DNA of 64,000 nucleotides from Thermoanaerobaculia bacterium (GTDB taxonomy: Bacteria; Acidobacteriota; Thermoanaerobaculia; UBA5066; Gp7-AA6). The stretch is from assembly GCA_035506175.1 (NCBI GenBank), contig DATJPZ010000049.1, positions 13,356-77,355 on the forward strand, written 5' to 3'. A model generated the notes under the pieces. The model was not told where the DNA came from. It ran no database searches and worked only from the letters and a program-made list of their open reading frames with translations. Positions 40,580 to 48,769 of this stretch are shown here, in pieces. Within the stretch, counting starts at the first letter, position 1. Every line of letters begins with the position of its first letter. The translations under genes were made by a program, and so were the position numbers.

Positions 40580-40613
40580 TCGCCGCGCTTATGCTATAAG
40601 CGGCGGTTCATCC

Positions 40614-42677
40614 ATGGCGCGCGTTTCCGAACCCGGGAGTCCCCGCTCCTCCGGCAAGCCCCCGAGCTACCTCGAGGCCCAGGCGAAGGCGACCGGGCGC
40701 TTCCAGCTCACGACCGAATTCACGCCGCAGGGCGACCAGGTCCAGGCGATCGAGAAGCTCGTCCGCGGCCTCGAGGAGGGGCGCCGCGACCAGGTGCTGC
40801 TCGGCGTGACGGGCTCGGGGAAGACGTTCACGATCGCGAAAGTCATCGAGGCCGTCAACCGGCCGACCCTCGTCCTGTCGCACAACAAGACGCTCGCCGC
40901 CCAGCTCTACCAGGAGTTCCGCGCGTTCTTTCCGCAGAACTCCGTCGAGTATTTCGTCTCGTACTACGACTACTACCAGCCGGAGGCTTACGTCCCGCAG
41001 ACGGACACCTACATCGAGAAAGAGACCTCCCGGAACGAGGAGATCGACAAGCTGCGCCTGGCGGCCTCGAAGGCCCTCTTCGAGAGGCGCGACGTCATCG
41101 TCGTGGCGTCGGTGTCCTGCATCTACGGCCTCGGCGCCCCCGACTCCTACTACGACATGCTGGCGTACCTCGAGGTCGGCGACACGCAGGGGATGCCGGC
41201 CCTTCTCGCCAAGCTGGTCGCGATGCAATACGAGCGCACCCACATGGACCTCGCCCGCGGAAGTTTCCGCGTGCGGGGCGACGTCCTGGAGATCCAGCCG
41301 GCCTACGAGGACACCGCGGTCCGGGTCGAGTTCTTCGGCGACGAGATCGAGAAGATCACCAGGACCGACCCGCTGCGCGGCACGCCCCTCCAGAAAGTGG
41401 ACCGGCTCGCGCTCTATCCCCGGACTTTCTACGCGACGCCGCGCGAGACGCTCGAGCGGGCGATCGGCACGATACGGGTCGAGCTCGACGAGAGACTGGC
41501 CCGGCTGACAGAGGACGGCAAGCTGCTCGAAGCGCAGCGCCTTCACCAGCGCACGATGTTCGACCTCGAGATGATCAAGGAGCTCGGCTATTGCAACGGC
41601 ATCGAGAACTACTCGCGGCACCTCTCGGGCCGCGCCGCGGGCGAGCCGCCGCCGACGCTCCTCGACTATTTCCCGAAGGACTTTCTCCTGGTCGTGGACG
41701 AGTCGCACGTCACGCTGCCGCAGGTGCGCGGCATGTACTTCGGCGACCGGTCCCGCAAGGAGGTGCTCGTCGAGTACGGGTTCCGCCTGCCCTCGGCCCT
41801 CGACAACCGGCCCCTGACGTACGACGAATTCCGCACCCGCATCCATCAGGTCATCGCGGTCAGCGCCACGCCGGGGCCGGAAGAGCTCGAACGCAGCGGG
41901 GGCGAGATCGTCGAGCAGGTCATCCGGCCCACGGGTCTCGTCGACCCGGCGATCGAGGTGCGGCCGGTCAAGGGCCAGGTGGACGACCTGCTGGCGGTCG
42001 TGCGACAGGCCGCCGCGGACGGCGAGCGCGTGCTCGTGACGACGCTGACCAAACGCATGGCCGAAGAGCTGACCAACTACTTCACGGAAGTCGGCGTCCG
42101 ATGCCGCTACCTCCACTCCGACATCGAGGTCATGGAGCGGGTCGCGATCCTGACGGACTTCCGCCGGGGGGTCTTCGACTGCCTCATCGGGATCAACCTG
42201 CTCCGCGAGGGATTGGACCTTCCCGAGGTCGCCGTCGTCGCGATCCTCGACGCCGACAAGGAGGGGTTCCTCCGCAGCGAAACCTCGCTCATCCAGACGG
42301 CCGGGCGCGCCGCACGGAATCTGAAGGGCCGCGTCCTCTTCTACGCCGACGCCGTGACCGATTCCATGCGCCGGGCGATGGAGGAGACGGCGCGGCGGCG
42401 GGCCCTGCAGGAGGCGTACAACCGGGAGCACGGCGTGGTGCCGGCCTCGATCGTCAAGCAGGTCAACTCGCCGCTCGTCCGGATGTCGAACCTCGACTAT
42501 TACGAGGCCCCGTCGATTCCGCGAGCGGACCTGCCCGATCCCGAGTCGCTCCGCCGGCGCACCGCGGAGCTCGAGAAGCAGATGCGGGCCGCCGCCAAGG
42601 AGCTCGACTTCGAGCGGGCCGCCGCGCTCCGGGACGAGCTTCGGGCGCTGCGCGAGCTCGAGATCTTCCGGGGCTAA
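40614..42677 (+). CDS. uvrB: Excinuclease ABC subunit B
   Basis: [10 protein letters not shown] Walker A, DESHVT, beta-hairpin region, C-terminal UVR domain [25 protein letters not shown]. Confidence 0.95.
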
Positions 42678-43045
42678 CCGGGTTTCTGCGCGTCCGGACT
42701 CGCGCCCGCGGGCCTCGCGCCGGCCGGCGTCGCGGCGGGTTTCGGGGTCGGAGTCCGGAGCCCGAGCGGGTTTTTCCGGAGGTAGAGCCGGGCCGCGCCC
42801 TCGACCGGGTCGCCCGAAACCGGCGACGCGATGAGCCTCGGCTTGAAGGCGTTGTCGACCCCGACGCTGACGAGGGCGTTTCCGAGCTGCGCGTCGGGCA
42901 GGTTGGCGACGGCATCCGCCGGGCGCAGGCCGTACGGGACGTTGCAGGGGTAGGCGGCGTGGCACCGCGCGAGCGGCACGAGCTGCGCCGTCGCGGGCGC
43001 CGCGACCGAGGCGAAGACGAGGCCGGCGAGGAGCGCGCGCTTCAT
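42674..43045 (-). CDS. Small secreted hypothetical protein (signal peptide, CHAAYPC pair)
   Basis: Start set at internal ATG 43045 ([21 protein letters not shown] signal) forming an ATGA overlap with the upstream zinc-ribbon gene; the longer ORF to 43243 would overlap that gene. Confidence 0.5.
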
Positions 43046-43257
43046 ATCCAGTGGCACGCGCGGGCGAGACCGGCGAGGACGAGAAGCAGGGCCGCGATCG
43101 CCGCTGCCCACACCGCGGTGCGCGACTTGGTCGGCAGCGGACGCTGCCGCGTGTAGAAGCCCGTCTGCCACCGCTCGAGCTCGCGGTTGCATTTCGGGCA
43201 GACCGGAGTGCCGGGCTCGACCGGGGTGTAGCAGTACGGGCACTCGTACATCGGCAT
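43042..43257 (-). CDS. Small zinc-ribbon membrane protein (CPYC...CPKC plus C-terminal TM helix)
   Basis: 71 aa; two CxxC pairs 13 residues apart, then hydrophobic helix AVWAAAIAALLLVLAGLA. Confidence 0.5.
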   Translation of the reverse strand: MPMYECPYCYTPVEPGTPVCPKCNRELERWQTGFYTRQRPLPTKSRTAVWAAAIAALLLVLAGLARACHWI

Positions 43258-43388
43258 GAGGCGATCATACCGCCGGGCTCCGGCGCGGCGTTCCCCCGCC
43301 GCGAATCTCTCCTTCGGCCCCGGCCCGACGGAGTCGGCCCGGGCTCCGGCGCGGCGTTCCGCCGCCGCGAATCGGGTACACTGACGTC

Positions 43389-45203
43389 GTGGTCGAGGCT
43401 CGCCGCGGACCGGAGAATCTGCCGGATTCCCCGGGTGTCTATCTCTTCCGCGGCGACAGGGGCAGGATCCTCTATGTCGGGAAAGCCCTGTCGCTGCGCA
43501 AGCGCGTGGGGTCCTACTTCAACCCCGCCTACGGCGGCGCGAAGGAGGAGGCCCTGCGCCGGCTCCACCGCGAGGTCGAGACCATCTCGACCCGGACGGA
43601 GCTCGAGGCCCTCCTCCTCGAGAACACCCTCATCAAGAAGCACCGTCCCCGGTACAACGTCTGCCTCCGCGACGACAAGACCTACCCCTACATCAAGGTC
43701 ACGACGGGGGAGGCCTGGCCGCGGGCGCTGGTCACCCGGCGGGTCGAGGAGGACGGCCACTCGTACTACGGGCCCTTCTGGGGAGGTCTCGCCCGCCGGA
43801 TCATGCGAATGATCACGCGGCATTTCCAGATCCGGACCTGCACGATCGAGATCGACGGCAACCTGCCGAGGCCCTGCCTCTACTACGACCTGCACGCGTG
43901 TCTCGGGCCCTGCGTCTCCGGGCTGACGACGAAAGCGGCCTACGACGCGGCGGTCGCCGACGTCGTCCTGTTTCTCGAGGGCCGCAACCGGGAGCTCGAG
44001 GCGAGCCTGACCGAGAAGATGCGCTCCGCCTCGCAGACCGAGAACTTCGAGATGGCGGCCGCTTACCGCGACGCCCTCCGGACCGTGCGCGACGTCTCCG
44101 AGCATCAGGTCGTCCAGTCCCTGAAGGGCGAGAACGTCGACGTCTTCGGTTTCTTCGAATCCGGACAGGACGTGGCGGTGTGCGTGCTCGTCGTGCGCGC
44201 CGGCGTGCTGCAGGACCGCCGGGACTTCTTTTTCGAGAAGGCCCAGGAGCTCGATCCGGCGGCGTTTCTCGAGGCGTTCCTGCCCCAGTTCTACGACGCC
44301 AATCCGTTCCTGCCCGCCGAGATTCACCTGCCCATCGGGATTCCGGGCGCGGCCCTCGTCGAGGGCTACATCGCCGAGCGCCGCGGCGTGAGGGTCGCCG
44401 TCCGGACGCCCCGCCGGGGCCCCGCCGTCGAACGCGTGAAGATGGCCGAGGCGAATGCGCGCGAGCGCCACCGGGTGCGCTTCCGCGGCGCCGGGGGCGA
44501 CGAGGCCGTCGCCGTCGAGCGCCTGGCGCGCGCGATCGGTCTCGGCGTGCCGCCGCGCCGCATCGAGGCCTTCGACATTTCCCACACCCAGGGCACCGAC
44601 AGCGTCGGCTCGCTCGTGGTCTTCGAGGAGGGGAAGCCGAAGAAGGCCGACTACCGGCTCTTCAACGTCGCGTCCCAGGGGCTGCTCGAGCCCGACGACT
44701 TCCGGAGCATGGCCGAGGTCGTGGACCGCCGGTACCGCCGCCTGAAGGCGGAAGAGAGCGCGATGCCCGACCTCGTCCTCGTGGACGGAGGGCGCGGGCA
44801 GCTGCAGGCCGCGCTGACGGCGCTCGATCGCCTCGGACTCGACCTGCCGGCGGTGGGGCTCGCCAAGCGCGAGGAGGAGATCTGGATGCCGGGGCGCCCG
44901 GACCCCGTGCGGTTGTCGCGGAAGGATCCGGCGCTGCAGCTCGTCCAGCGCGTGCGCGACGAAGCGCATCGGTTCGCGATCTCGCGACACCGGGCCCGGC
45001 GAGACAAGCGCATGCGCCAGACCGGCCTGACCGAGATTCCGGGCATCGGGCCGGTGAAGGCCCGCCTCTTGCTTCGGCGCTTCGGCTCGGTCAACGGGTT
45101 GCGCGGCGCCGACCCGACCGAGATCGCGGCCGCCGTCGGGCCGACGACCGCGCGGGCCGTGACGGCGTTTCTCGACTCGCCGGGAGGCTCGGCCGGCGCA
45201 TGA
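43389..45203 (+). CDS. uvrC: Excinuclease ABC subunit C
   Basis: GIY-YIG N-terminus (PGVYLFRGDRGRILYVGKA), UVR domain, EAFDISH, C-terminal HhH. Confidence 0.93.
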   Translation: MVEARRGPENLPDSPGVYLFRGDRGRILYVGKALSLRKRVGSYFNPAYGGAKEEALRRLHREVETISTRTELEALLLENTLIKKHRPRYNVCLRDDKTYPYIKVTTGEAWPRALVTRRVEEDGHSYYGPFWGGLARRIMRMITRHFQIRTCTIEIDGNLPRPCLYYDLHACLGPCVSGLTTKAAYDAAVADVVLFLEGRNRELEASLTEKMRSASQTENFEMAAAYRDALRTVRDVSEHQVVQSLKGENVDVFGFFESGQDVAVCVLVVRAGVLQDRRDFFFEKAQELDPAAFLEAFLPQFYDANPFLPAEIHLPIGIPGAALVEGYIAERRGVRVAVRTPRRGPAVERVKMAEANARERHRVRFRGAGGDEAVAVERLARAIGLGVPPRRIEAFDISHTQGTDSVGSLVVFEEGKPKKADYRLFNVASQGLLEPDDFRSMAEVVDRRYRRLKAEESAMPDLVLVDGGRGQLQAALTALDRLGLDLPAVGLAKREEEIWMPGRPDPVRLSRKDPALQLVQRVRDEAHRFAISRHRARRDKRMRQTGLTEIPGIGPVKARLLLRRFGSVNGLRGADPTEIAAAVGPTTARAVTAFLDSPGGSAGA

Positions 45204-47086
45204 GGGCGGCGTTCGACCACGAGGGCGATATCCGGGGAGTCGACCTCCTCGGGGCCCTCGTCGCCCTGTGGCGCGAAGGCGCCAGCGGCTCGCTCCAGTT
45301 CTCGCGCGCGGGCGCCACGGCGGGGTTCGAGGTCGTGGCGGGAGAGATCGTCGCGACGTCCTCGTCGGACCCGCGCTTCGAGACGGCGGCAATCCTCGTG
45401 CGGGCGGGCAAGCTCGACGCGCGGACCCTCGAGCGCCTGGCCGCGCCGGAGGGAGCCGACCGGGCGCTCCTCGCTCTGCAGGCCGGCGTCCTGACGCGCC
45501 GCGAGTGGCGCTGGGGCGAGAAGATCCGCGCCGTCGAAATCCTCTCGGACCTGCTGACGTGGCTCGAGGGCGAATACTGGTTCCTGCGGACCAACGAGGA
45601 CGGGCGCGAGACGACCGAGCCGCGTCTGCCCATTCCGCGACTCGTGCTCGAGCTGTTCCTGCGGTCCCGGGACCGGAGCCTCGTCCTGAAGCACCTCGGC
45701 GGCGCCGACGTTCCCCTCGCGCGCGCCCCCAGCTTCGACGCCGAGTTTGCGACGTTTGGCCTGACGGCCGACGCGGAGTCGGTCGTCCGGCTGATCGACG
45801 GCACGTCGACCGCCGAGCAGATCGCCAGCGAGGCGCCCGCCGAAGCCTTCGCGGTCGAGAAGCTTCTCGCGGCTCTCGTGACGCTCGGGCTCGTGCACCC
45901 GGAGTTCGGCGCCGGCGGGCGGGCGACGCGGGCGGCCGACGCGACGGACGGTGAGCTCGCCGCGCCCCACGAGGCGCCGGCGCAAGCCGTCGCGGAGGCG
46001 GCGGCCGGGGACGAGGAAGAATGGAAATCAGGGGACGAAGGGGAGGCCGAGGACGGGGACGAACCCTCCGACGACGCCCTGGAGGCCGGCGAGGAAGAGC
46101 CGGAGACCGACGATGAATCCGCCTCGGACATCGAGGAGGTCGAGATCCACGCCGTCGAGGAGGAGCTTCGGGCGTCGTCCGTGGACGAAGGACCGAGCGA
46201 GCTCGGCGACGACGCGGGATGGCGACGCGACCTGGGGTCGGCGCTGGACGAGGCGGCCCCGGGTGCACGGGCGATCCCCGCGGATCTCGAGTTGGCCGCG
46301 CTCCGGTCAGACGACGCCGCCGGCGGGGGCCGCCCGCGCGAGATCGAGATCGGCGGCTCGGCGGATGCCTTCGGCCGCCCGCTCGACTCCGCGACCGGCG
46401 TGGGCGAGCTCGAAAGGCCGAAGCCGCGTGGACTCTCGCCCCTCGTGTGGGTGCTCGCCGCCCTCGGCCTCGCGCTCGTCGTGACGTTGTGGCTCCGGAG
46501 CCGCGGCCCGTCCCCGCCGCCGACCGAGAGCGGCGCCGCCGTGCCGTCGCCCGCCGCAGAAACTCCCGCGGTCGCCGCACCCGAGCCCACGGCGGCCGCC
46601 ACGGTTGCGCCCCTGCCCGCGGCCGAAGCACCGGCGGCCCTGCCGGCGGCGCTCCCGACGACGGCACCGACACCGGTGCCCACGGCGCCACCGCCGCGCG
46701 GCAAACCCACCCCCAGGCCGGCCGTCGCGAAGGGGCCCGCGGCGCCACCCTCCGCGGCCGGATCGCCGCGCGAGGCGTCGTCGTCGCGCCAGCACTGGCT
46801 CGAGCGGGCCGCGCGCGACGCCCAGAAGCTCGCGGCGGACCGGAAGACGCACTACGCCATCCAGCTCGAGCTCGCCTGCGAGGTCCAGTCCCTCACCGAC
46901 GCCTTCCAGCACGACCGTCCGCCGGGCAGCATGTGGCTTCTCGCGACGCCGCATCAGGACAGGACCTGCTTCCGCGTTCTGTGGGGCCACTACCCGACCA
47001 TCGAAGCCGCGCGGCGGGGCCTGTCCGGCACGCCGCGATTCTTCTCGACACCGAAGAACCGGCCGGCCGTCACCGGGGTGCGCTGA
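45200..47086 (+). CDS. DUF4388 domain protein with acidic linker, TM helix, Pro/Ala-rich region and C-terminal SPOR-like domain
   Basis: ATGA overlap with uvrC; N-terminal DUF4388-like (DLLGALVALWREGASGSLQF...ILVRAGKLD); TM LSPLVWVLAALGLALVVTLWL; C-terminal YAIQLELACEV...FRVLWGHYPTIEAARRGL resembles a SPOR peptidoglycan-binding domain. Confidence 0.55.
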   Translation: MRAAFDHEGDIRGVDLLGALVALWREGASGSLQFSRAGATAGFEVVAGEIVATSSSDPRFETAAILVRAGKLDARTLERLAAPEGADRALLALQAGVLTRREWRWGEKIRAVEILSDLLTWLEGEYWFLRTNEDGRETTEPRLPIPRLVLELFLRSRDRSLVLKHLGGADVPLARAPSFDAEFATFGLTADAESVVRLIDGTSTAEQIASEAPAEAFAVEKLLAALVTLGLVHPEFGAGGRATRAADATDGELAAPHEAPAQAVAEAAAGDEEEWKSGDEGEAEDGDEPSDDALEAGEEEPETDDESASDIEEVEIHAVEEELRASSVDEGPSELGDDAGWRRDLGSALDEAAPGARAIPADLELAALRSDDAAGGGRPREIEIGGSADAFGRPLDSATGVGELERPKPRGLSPLVWVLAALGLALVVTLWLRSRGPSPPPTESGAAVPSPAAETPAVAAPEPTAAATVAPLPAAEAPAALPAALPTTAPTPVPTAPPPRGKPTPRPAVAKGPAAPPSAAGSPREASSSRQHWLERAARDAQKLAADRKTHYAIQLELACEVQSLTDAFQHDRPPGSMWLLATPHQDRTCFRVLWGHYPTIEAARRGLSGTPRFFSTPKNRPAVTGVR

Positions 47087-47143
47087 CGGGGCGGCGGCTT
47101 TCTGCTACCCTGAGGAACTCGGCCCACCGACCTTGACGCGCCC

Positions 47144-48769
47144 ATGAGCACACCAGCGGCTTCGGCCGGATTTCGCGGCTCTCTGTCGGAGACGCCGCTG
47201 CCGCAGGTGCTCCGCCGCATCTTTCTCGAGAGCCTGAAGGGAACGCTCTCCCTCGTCCACGGTGACGAGACCCGCCATCTCTTCTTCGAGAAGGGGGAGC
47301 TCCGCACCGCGACCTCGTCCCGCGAAGGCCAGCGCATCGGCGCGTTCCTGAAGCGCCGCGGCTGGATCACCGACACCGACCTGAACTGGGCTCTCGACAC
47401 GGTGGCCAAGCAGGGGCGCGCGCGGCTCGGCAAGATCCTCGTCGAGCGCGGCCTGGTCTCCCGCACCGTGCTCGACGCCGAGATGCGCCGGCTCGTCGAG
47501 GAGATCGTCTTCTCGACCTTCGCGTGGGACTCGGGCGAGTACCGCTACCAGGCCTCCGGCGGCGTCCTCGACCCGGACGTCGCCCTGACGCTCTCGACGG
47601 CGGCGATCATCGTCGAGGGCATTCGCCGGCTGCCGGAGAGCGAGGCGTTCCGCGAGCGGCTGGGCGACGGGCACCGCGTGCCCATGCTCGCCACCGATCC
47701 GATGTCGCGCTACCAGTACCTGCCGCTGGCCCCGCAGGAGGCGTATCTCCTGTCGCGGATCGACGGGATCCTCGACGTCGACTCGCTCTTGAAGATCGCG
47801 GGCACCTCCCGCGCGGCGATGGCGAAGATCCTCTATGCACTCGTCTCCTGCGGCATCGTCGAATGGAAACAGGACGGCGCCCAGCGTCCCGCCAGCGGCC
47901 GGGGCGGCTTCCACGGGTTGAACGTCGAAGTCTCGGCGGCGCCGGCGGACCGGTCGCCCGGCCACGCCGAGCTCGTCAAGAACACCTATCGCCGGATCGA
48001 CTGGCTGACGCACTACGAGCTGCTCGGCATCGTGCGCGACGCGCCGCCCGAAAAGGTCGCCGAGGCTTATTTCGAGCGCAGCCGGCTCTTCCATCCGGAT
48101 CTGCGGCACCGCGAGGACCTCGCGCGCTTCGAGAAGGAGCTGACGGCGGTATTCGAGCGGATGAAGAAGGCCTACGAGACGCTCTCCGATCCAGACAAGC
48201 GAGCGCTCTACGACCAGAGCCTCGACGCGGCGCCCGCGCCCGTCCTGACGGCCGAGGCCGACCCGGAGATGCGCAAGAAGCTCGCCACCCAGAACTTCCG
48301 CCGGGCACGGCAGCTGATCGAGGACAAGGACTACCACCCGGCCGTCGAAATGCTGCGCGAGGCGATCCGGTTCGTCCCGGACAACCCCGAGTACCGGTAC
48401 GTGCTCGCCCAGGTCGAGTTGAAGAATCCGAACTGGACCGACCAGGGGCTCGCGAACCTCAAGGAAGCCGCTCGTCTCGACAGCCGCCGCGTCGCCTATT
48501 CGCTCGAGGCGGCGCGCGCACTCCTCGAACACAAGCGCCCCCACGAAGCCGAGCCCTTCGCGCGCCGCGCGGTGTCGCTCGATCCGTCGCCGGAGAGCGA
48601 AGAGCTCCTGCAGCGGACGCTCGCCGCGCAGGCGGCTTCACCGATGCCGGCGGTTCCGGCCGAGCCCGGAGCCCCGTTGCCGGCCGGCGAGGCGACGCCG
48701 ACCGGGGAAGCGGCGTCGGCCCCGCAGCCCACCGGCCTTCTCTCCCGGCTCTTCCGGCACCGCGGTTGA
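47144..48769 (+). CDS. DUF4388 - J-domain (DnaJ) - TPR protein
   Basis: N-terminal LPQVLRRIFLESLKGTLSLVHGDETRHLFFEKGEL (DUF4388); J-domain with HPD motif (YELLGIVRDA...FHPDL...AYETLSDPDKRALYD); C-terminal TPR-like. Confidence 0.7.
   Translation: MSTPAASAGFRGSLSETPLPQVLRRIFLESLKGTLSLVHGDETRHLFFEKGELRTATSSREGQRIGAFLKRRGWITDTDLNWALDTVAKQGRARLGKILVERGLVSRTVLDAEMRRLVEEIVFSTFAWDSGEYRYQASGGVLDPDVALTLSTAAIIVEGIRRLPESEAFRERLGDGHRVPMLATDPMSRYQYLPLAPQEAYLLSRIDGILDVDSLLKIAGTSRAAMAKILYALVSCGIVEWKQDGAQRPASGRGGFHGLNVEVSAAPADRSPGHAELVKNTYRRIDWLTHYELLGIVRDAPPEKVAEAYFERSRLFHPDLRHREDLARFEKELTAVFERMKKAYETLSDPDKRALYDQSLDAAPAPVLTAEADPEMRKKLATQNFRRARQLIEDKDYHPAVEMLREAIRFVPDNPEYRYVLAQVELKNPNWTDQGLANLKEAARLDSRRVAYSLEAARALLEHKRPHEAEPFARRAVSLDPSPESEELLQRTLAAQAASPMPAVPAEPGAPLPAGEATPTGEAASAPQPTGLLSRLFRHRG

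Follow-up and report, generated by a model that had tools for sequence, protein, structure and literature searches.

Two small genes between uvrB and uvrC

The 64,000-nucleotide stretch of DNA analyzed here (the window; contig DATJPZ010000049.1 of a Thermoanaerobaculia bacterium) carries two small open reading frames, ORF1 and ORF2, on the minus strand between the plus-strand excinuclease genes uvrB (40614..42677; Pfam domains UvrB_inter, UvrB, Helicase_C and UVR) and uvrC (43389..45203; GIY-YIG, UvrC_RNaseH and HHH). A preliminary description had placed them in this position, ORF2 convergent with uvrB and ORF1 divergent from uvrC, which is borne out by the Pfam assignments. ORF1 (43042..43257) encodes 71 amino acids beginning with MPMYECPYCYTPVEPGTPVCPKCNRELERW, and ORF2 (42674..43045) encodes a predicted exported Cys-x5-Cys protein of 123 amino acids. 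The ORF1 stop and the ORF2 start overlap in an ATGA (43042..43045, minus strand), pointing at putative translational coupling, and ORF2 would be translated via termination-reinitiation at this site. At the other end, the ORF2 stop codon TAG and the uvrB stop codon TAA converge in a 4-nt overlap (42674..42677; TTAG/CTAA), which reaches 11 nt in relatives. A scan of 42400-43600, which includes the convergent ends of ORF2 and uvrB, yielded no terminator-like hairpin, and antisense transcripts reading through between uvrB and ORF1-ORF2 may occur.

The GC content of the window (71.5%) yields chance reading frames in every frame, with long examples in all six frames near the site (e.g., 1655 and 2046 amino acids), and ORF length alone therefore proves nothing here. 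GC content at third codon positions (GC3) is 0.89 for ORF1 and 0.93 for ORF2, compared with 0.92-0.93 for uvrB and uvrC. Homologue searches recovered 55 clusters for ORF1 with a single sequence and 141 with a profile, nearly all of 68-75 amino acids, and 62 clusters at 90% identity for ORF2, with lengths of 101-129 amino acids; the named homologues of both all come from Thermoanaerobaculia/Acidobacteriota. Ratios of nonsynonymous to synonymous substitution rates (dN/dS), determined against ten related genomes, range from 0.01 to 0.12 for ORF1 and from 0.16 to 0.56 for ORF2; the same comparison yields 0.05-0.16 for uvrB and 0.04-0.22 for uvrC. Constraint on ORF1 is at least equal to that on UvrB, and ORF2 is fast-evolving yet still under purifying selection. 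Scanning a single genome for each GTDB species identified 101 species with ORF1 relatives, from which 80 loci were retrieved, all in metagenome-assembled genomes (MAGs) labelled Thermoanaerobaculia or Acidobacteriota. Conservation in relatives, which the preliminary description had suggested as a check, holds for both ORFs and includes the uvrB/uvrC locus. The translations match those quoted before, and GC3, dN/dS and conservation identify ORF1 and ORF2 as genuine genes. They were also correctly described as lacking a recognized family: Pfam, NCBIfam and PADLOC searches with both proteins returned only generic, sub-threshold zinc-ribbon matches for ORF1 and none for ORF2, and Pfam and NCBIfam gave no match at E<=1 for any of 25 members of the ORF2 family.

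ORF1 displays the proposed architecture of a four-cysteine zinc ribbon followed by a single transmembrane (TM) helix. The ribbon (residues 4-28, CPYC ... CPKC; 43174..43248, minus strand) is predicted to bind metal through a Cys4 site of two CxxC knuckles, supported by conservation, by the Zn_ribbon_3 profile (PF13248) and by an AlphaFold2 (AF2) model. Zn_ribbon_3 matches 25 of 26 family members with a best E of 5.8e-8, the window's ORF1 scoring 23 bits, under the 27-bit cut-off; the model (predicted local distance difference test, pLDDT, 79) displays a beta-hairpin zinc knuckle and a helix at residues 43-67 with pLDDT 87-97. Foldseek superposes ORF1 on generic NZF/RanBP2 zinc ribbons of the PDB at ~1 Å, but with E >0.1. 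The ribbon is followed by a juxtamembrane motif, W-Q-T-G-F-Y (residues 30-35; 43153..43170, minus strand), and by the TM helix (residues 43-67; 43057..43131, minus strand), with a hydropathy peak at residues 51-65. Family alignments reveal ten invariant residues (C6, C9, C20, C23, W30, T32, G33, F34, G63 and C68), conservation of at least 90% for Q31 and Y35, and conserved small residues, G63 and A65, within the helix. As four basic residues precede the helix and just C-H-W-I follows it, the positive-inside rule suggests a tail-anchored protein with its N-terminal domain in the cytoplasm; zinc ribbon and WQTGFY would then be cytoplasmic, with C-H-W-I exposed at the periplasmic face. The start codon conserved in the family is the second ATG at 43251, so that ORF1 may comprise 69 rather than 71 amino acids. 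The profile search delineates a tight family, the best 120 matches all having E <1e-29 and the named members belonging to Thermoanaerobaculia/Acidobacteriota; it returned no distant ORF1 relatives and hence no other genomic context. Generic membrane-anchored zinc-ribbon proteins (Zn_ribbon_3/DZR; "YvbJ-like", "TcaA N-terminus") likewise combine an N-terminal CxxC...CxxC ribbon with one TM helix, whereas ORF1 has essentially no extracytoplasmic domain, carries an invariant WQTGFY and a terminal Cys, and belongs to a compact family restricted to one class.

For ORF2, sequence, hydropathy and alignments agree with the layout given in the preliminary description, namely a signal peptide, a cysteine pair and a Pro/Ala-rich tail. 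Residues 1-20 (42986..43045, minus strand) resemble a Sec-type signal peptide with n/h/c layout, MKR preceding a 15-residue hydrophobic core (hydropathy peak at residues 4-18) and an ATA/Q cleavage site, whose AxA/Q pattern is conserved across the family; export by Sec and cleavage after ATA are thus predicted. The mature protein of ~102 amino acids would be largely disordered and consist of an N-terminal Cys-x5-Cys loop, a single conserved helix and a tail rich in Pro. The loop, CHAAYPC (Cys28-x2-Ala31-x2-Cys34; 42944..42964, minus strand), is preceded by L-x-R in many family members, and among 25 divergent members the sole invariant columns are Q21 (the +1 residue), C28, A31 and C34, in uvr and ccm contexts alike. 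A helix motif, D-P-x-E-x-A-A-R-L-Y-[LV]-x-K-N-P (residues 79-93; 42767..42811, minus strand), contains residues D79, A84, A85 and R86, which are invariant in family alignment A1, and coincides with the single helix of note (residues 80-91) in an otherwise poor AF2 model (pLDDT 52). The remaining Pro/Thr/Ala-rich tail (residues 94-123; 42677..42766, minus strand) is variable in alignments and modelled at pLDDT <60. A precursor of a ribosomally synthesized and post-translationally modified peptide and a cytochrome were considered and rejected, as the conserved residues follow a standard signal peptide and no CXXCH motif is present.

Genomic contexts of the ORF2 family

ORF1 and ORF2 had been described as a two-gene module, which does not hold as an obligate arrangement: ORF1 occurs without ORF2 at the uvr locus, and ORF2-family genes follow the haem lyase gene ccmF in ~30 contigs. 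Using a hidden Markov model of the family, an ORF2 member was detected at 54 of the 80 species loci and was missing from 26, all in clades with a 68-amino-acid ORF1. Within the window's clade, the previously reported overlap of ORF1 stop and ORF2 start is kept as [AG]TGA in 37 of 44 loci, the others having gaps of +1 to +5 nt. In a second uvr clade, characterized by the sequence type QW.RLQRC...PDPL, ORF2 is located 31-90 nt downstream of ORF1, and in other members of that clade both genes are split by a 1.2-1.3-kb insertion containing an oxidoreductase-like gene on the opposite strand. An opposite-strand gene of ~380 codons lies between ORF1 and uvrB in one clade (loci L033, L044, L047, L050, L062, L064, L074, L075 and L080); the N-terminus of its product appears Gfo/Idh/MocA-like by eye only. 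Some of these nine loci have a gene for a ~610-amino-acid membrane protein inserted additionally or instead, and ORF1 always stays beside uvrC.

A metagenome scan with a sub-alignment of the second sequence type yielded 54 loci, comprising ~22 uvr loci and ~30 with an ORF2-family gene on the same strand directly after ccmF. Pfam places ccmA, ccmB, ccmC and ccmE upstream of a ~780-codon ccmF in the latter. Where the ccmF end is present (25 loci), the ORF2-family gene starts between -4 and +91 nt relative to the ccmF stop, including four GTGA overlaps. This linkage persists down to 58% CcmF identity (range 58-100%) and where a homologue of the usual downstream gene for a metallo-beta-lactamase (MBL)-fold protein was undetected (L136, L137); in most ccm loci, this MBL gene follows the ORF2-family gene in convergent orientation. 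The ccmF-linked members originate from Thermoanaerobaculia MAGs as well.

One MAG (locus-tag prefix VIA45) harbors both families on separate contigs. Its ORF1 (VIA45_13935) is 100% identical to that of locus L067, where merely 169 nt separate ORF1 from uvrB, leaving no room for ORF2 at the uvr locus; the nearest relatives of its ORF2-family protein (VIA45_08665; 88% and 77% identity) are all ccmF-adjacent. In a neighbour-joining tree, the second uvr clade lies next to ccm clades and the window's clade forms a separate long branch; uvr and ccm members interleave. Most simply, these contexts would be explained by a single gene copy in each genome, relocated from its site downstream of ccmF to one downstream of ORF1 in the common ancestor of both uvr clades. 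The tree does not resolve this well enough to establish a single relocation event, and the window's ORF2 may alternatively be a paralogue. Collectively, ORF1 and ORF2 are found so far only in Thermoanaerobaculia, presumably co-expressed in the window's lineage and separable elsewhere.

A proposed role in System I* cytochrome c maturation and competing readings

CcmE encoded beside ccmF-ORF2 carries VKCPSKY in six of six cases, replacing the canonical haem-binding histidine. The ccm operons carrying the ORF2 family are therefore assigned to System I*, as CPSKY represents the CxxxY rather than the HxxxY form. System I* is defined by a CPSKY CcmE (Allen et al. 2006, reviewed in PMC3601427) and has been reported to do without CcmH and, in the case of Desulfovibrio, without CcmG too (PMC3601427, PMC9084895), while about one third of bacteria with variant CcmE retain CcmH elsewhere. 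The ORF2-carrying Thermoanaerobaculia operons share these hallmarks, VKCPSKY CcmE and, within the operons, absence of ccmH and ccmG; they differ in containing the ORF2 family, as no extra small Cys protein is described for System I* in PMC3601427, PMC9084895 or PMC3884852. A CcmD-like ORF of 36 amino acids is located between ccmC and ccmE in these operons. Such operons are found at loci L110 (1150-5240), L122, L125, L131, L133 and L139, and the ~780 amino acids of their CcmF are unusually long.

Canonical CcmH comprises a periplasmic Cys domain with a TM anchor and the redox-active motif LRCxxC (PMC3884852). Like CcmH (PF03918; structures 2HL7 and 2KW0), ORF2 is a small periplasmic protein, by prediction, with two essential-looking cysteines near the mature N-terminus; the sequence around the first cysteine is LRC in CcmH, compared with L-x-R-C in ORF2. 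Moreover, the position right after ccmF, usual for ccmH/ccmG, is that of the ORF2 family in sister lineages, although not in this window.

As the family directly follows ccmF in System I* operons, in some cases with GTGA overlaps, ORF2 is inferred to work with CcmF. We tentatively favor the account, to which we assign somewhat less than an even chance, that ORF2 is an exported accessory of cytochrome c maturation whose gene moved behind ORF1. According to this account, ORF2 would work together with the haem lyase CcmF on the periplasmic side of the membrane and would probably handle the thiols of the apocytochrome CXXCH or the CcmE-Cys-haem adduct, a job and a gene position equivalent to those of CcmH in canonical System I, without homology to CcmH. 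The ORF2 gene would have left its place after ccmF and settled after ORF1 in an ancestor of the window's clade. The two genes probably serve the envelope and the assembly of cytochromes rather than DNA repair.

Several points weigh against this account. No ccm genes are found within the 64-kb window; the lack of a CXXCH motif in its confident ORFs is uninformative on cytochromes. Desulfovibrio System I* is functional in E. coli without CcmH or CcmG (PMC3601427), and therefore no missing factor is required. Homology of ORF2 to CcmH was rejected: hhalign of the family profile against the 2HL7 and 2KW0 sequences returned a probability of 0.06%, and a sequence-profile search of the PDB with the ORF2 family returned 0 matches. 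The motifs differ, CXXC in CcmH compared with an invariant C-x2-A-x2-C (C-x5-C) in ORF2, and CcmH possesses a TM anchor, whereas the only hydrophobic segment of ORF2 is its signal peptide and its C-terminus is Pro/Ala-rich. With a model at pLDDT 52, no redox-active fold is claimable for ORF2; likewise, the three-helix bundle of CcmH is not predicted, but the model is too poor to exclude this fold. Linkage to ccmF has been observed in a single class only, so that inherited gene order could explain part of it, and ORF1 is a class-specific family whose function is unexplained by a role of ORF2 in cytochrome maturation. Finally, coupling of ORF2 to ORF1 in ~40 species suggests that ORF2 may work with ORF1, or with both ORF1 and CcmF.

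Since this coupling is conserved, ORF1 stays open as a membrane partner of ORF2. Both could form one membrane/periplasm complex, in which ORF1 provides the anchor and a zinc-ribbon dock and Cys68 pairs with the ORF2 cysteines; acting with CcmF, the complex would be a split non-homologous counterpart of CcmH, or it would serve another envelope thiol pathway. In agreement with such a complex, the relocated ORF2 landed directly behind ORF1 with the [AG]TGA overlap largely kept, the second clade likewise has ORF2 downstream of ORF1, and both families, apparently confined to the same class, co-occur in one MAG though unlinked. An invariant Cys is positioned at the outer end of the ORF1 helix, G63 and A65 suit helix packing, and canonical CcmH itself combines a periplasmic Cys domain with a TM anchor (PMC3884852). 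However, none of the 30 ccmF-linked loci has ORF1 in the vicinity of its ccm genes, the 1.2-1.3-kb insertions of the second uvr clade part the genes with neither being lost, and the dN/dS of ORF1 is 5-20 times below that of ORF2 with no sign of co-variation. We regard the complex as rather unlikely, and as less likely still its specific version in which the ORF2 family is a non-homologous CcmH stand-in in System I* with ORF1 as its membrane partner, that is, a split and relocated haem-lyase accessory.

The adjacency to ccmF might, alternatively, be mere inherited order, ORF2 being a generic, fast-evolving periplasmic or envelope protein (e.g., a disordered, Pro-rich linker or surface protein containing a single structural disulphide) and ORF1 an unrelated small membrane protein, with no shared pathway. 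The dN/dS of ORF2 of up to 0.56, its mostly disordered, low-confidence model without family or structure match, at least one move of the gene without loss, and synteny evidence derived entirely from one class are compatible with a generic protein. Such a protein would not be expected to show the tight, same-strand linkage to ccmF (-4 to +91 nt, with GTGA overlaps), which survives to 58% CcmF identity and without a detected MBL gene, nor the invariance of both cysteines, Ala31 and the +1 Gln while the remainder diverges to ~25% identity. The latter argues for a specific active or binding site rather than a mere linker, and we consider the generic reading unlikely.

How haem is attached in System I* without CcmH, and how the thioether-like CcmE-Cys-haem bond is resolved, are open questions (PMC3601427, PMC9084895). 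ORF2 provides a candidate for these, a small, predicted exported two-Cys protein whose gene is predicted to share a transcript with ccmF and, in some lineages, to be coupled to it in translation. A small exported Cys-x5-Cys protein linked to System I* is not described in PMC3601427, PMC9084895 or PMC3884852. Two uncharacterized families are thus defined, found only in Thermoanaerobaculia (here in MAGs only), one of them a tail-anchored zinc-ribbon protein more constrained than UvrB. ORF2 is linked to System I* through guilt by association within a single class; the families are narrow, with ORF2 forming 32 clusters (50% identity) in a set of 1.84 billion representatives, and impact is therefore limited unless the mechanism generalizes.

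The ORF1-uvrC promoter region and neighboring genes

ORF1 is divergent from uvrC at every locus that retains the flank. A -10-like TATGAT (43264..43269, minus strand) is positioned 6 nt before the first ORF1 ATG and 12 nt before the family-conserved one. In 76 of 79 distinct loci, the conserved ATG is preceded by a hexamer of the TA[TG][GC]AT type, at a distance that is most commonly 12 nt (TATGAT in 61 loci, TAGGAT in 10, TATCAT in 4 and TAGAAT in 1), the remaining three having TAAGAT or TAACAT. On the plus strand, a -10-like TACACT (43377..43382) is located 6 nt before the GTG start of uvrC at 43389, and TA[CAG]ACT, followed after 6-7 nt by GTG or ATG, is found in 80 of 81 loci, with GTG in 73. 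A consensus promoter scan yielded no sites, the promoter assignment resting on cross-species conservation. The proximity of the conserved hexamers to the starts suggests that both transcripts are leaderless or nearly so: transcription of ORF1 would begin ~7 nt after TATGAT, a start deduced from conservation that implies a leaderless or nearly leaderless mRNA, and uvrC appears leaderless with a GTG start.

Beyond the two -10 hexamers nothing is conserved in the ORF1-uvrC spacer across ~80 loci. Its length varies: the distance from the conserved ORF1 ATG to the uvrC -10 box can be as short as 43 nt, and 70-250-nt repeat insertions occur. In the window, a lineage-specific insertion (43273..43373) contains a 35-nt direct repeat (43273-43307 and 43339-43373), the copies of which are 97% identical at 66-nt spacing and mark an insertion of ~71 nt between the two -10 boxes that is not present in the closest relative, L008. 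The repeat core is a hairpin, CGCGGCGG-NNNAA-CGCCGCG. At the corresponding position, locus L010 carries a 67-nt tandem array of 2.9 copies that share this core, and repeat copies containing it are seen there by eye in L007. A small repeat element, mobile or expanding, may target the ORF1-uvrC promoter region. The intergenic repeat was rejected as a structured element, its predicted DNA fold being no better than shuffled sequence (z = -1.1).

These observations bear on the hint of the preliminary description that the location between two excinuclease genes reflects co-regulation with the DNA-damage response. ORF1 and ORF2 would then constitute a damage-induced module sharing a divergent control region with uvrC, for example encoding a small membrane division inhibitor like SidA, DidA, YneA or SosA. 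Division inhibitors known to be induced by DNA damage are small proteins with one TM helix whose genes lie beside SOS genes, and SidA, DidA, YneA, SosA and ChiZ resemble ORF1 in being small single-TM proteins next to DNA-damage-response genes. The strict divergence of ORF1 from uvrC, with start codons 43-60 nt apart in many relatives, and a PBP1A gene nearby also fit this reading. However, intergenic conservation is limited to the two -10 hexamers, with no operator-like element and no palindrome or direct repeat common to clades, and a spacer that is variable and takes insertions of 70-250 nt disfavors a conserved operator, for example an SOS box. Inspection by eye for such boxes (E. coli-type CTGT-N8-ACAG, GAAC-N4-GTTC and GTTC-N7-GTTC) revealed clade-limited fragments only, e.g., CCTGTCG-TAGGAT with an unconserved right half in the intergenic alignments; the LexA motif of this class may differ, and a site that varies between clades may exist. 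The damage-induced inhibitors described so far are fast-evolving and not known to be homologous to one another, unlike the strongly constrained ORF1, on which purifying selection is stronger than on UvrB. SidA, DidA, YneA, SosA and ChiZ thus differ from ORF1 in its very strong conservation and in the lack of a conserved operator at its locus, and none of them, to our knowledge, has a zinc ribbon, as ORF1 does. Furthermore, the ORF2 family associates with ccmF and not with repair genes. Gene order is conserved throughout the DUF4126-DUF2232 block in the relatives compared (L001-L004 and L006), and the position next to uvr genes therefore says little. A DNA-damage module is the least supported of the readings and very improbable.

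The back-to-back promoters overlap, and a rearrangement would probably break one of them, which could explain why ORF1 is fixed beside uvrC; promoters lying within 43-60 nt in relatives would hold ORF1 in place. A conserved position beside repair genes can thus reflect overlapping leaderless promoters and not shared function.

A second pair of this kind may be present in the same block. The divergent intergenic region between uvrB and the PBP1A gene (40580-40613) spans only 34 nt; within it, CTTATGCTATAAG can be read as a pair of TATAAG-like -10 boxes that overlap on opposite strands, i.e., as back-to-back, near-leaderless promoters. Loci L023, L026 and others from "MFD" long-read MAGs display split frames of uvrB, uvrC or ORF2, and the L001 uvrB is split into three gene calls; assembly frameshifts rather than pseudogenes are the probable cause. 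Downstream of uvrC, two genes occupy 45200-48769. The first encodes ~600 amino acids, with homologues in related loci that lack a Pfam match, and homologues of the second contain PatA_N, DnaJ and TPR domains; the N-termini of both look similar (PatA_N/DUF4388-like).

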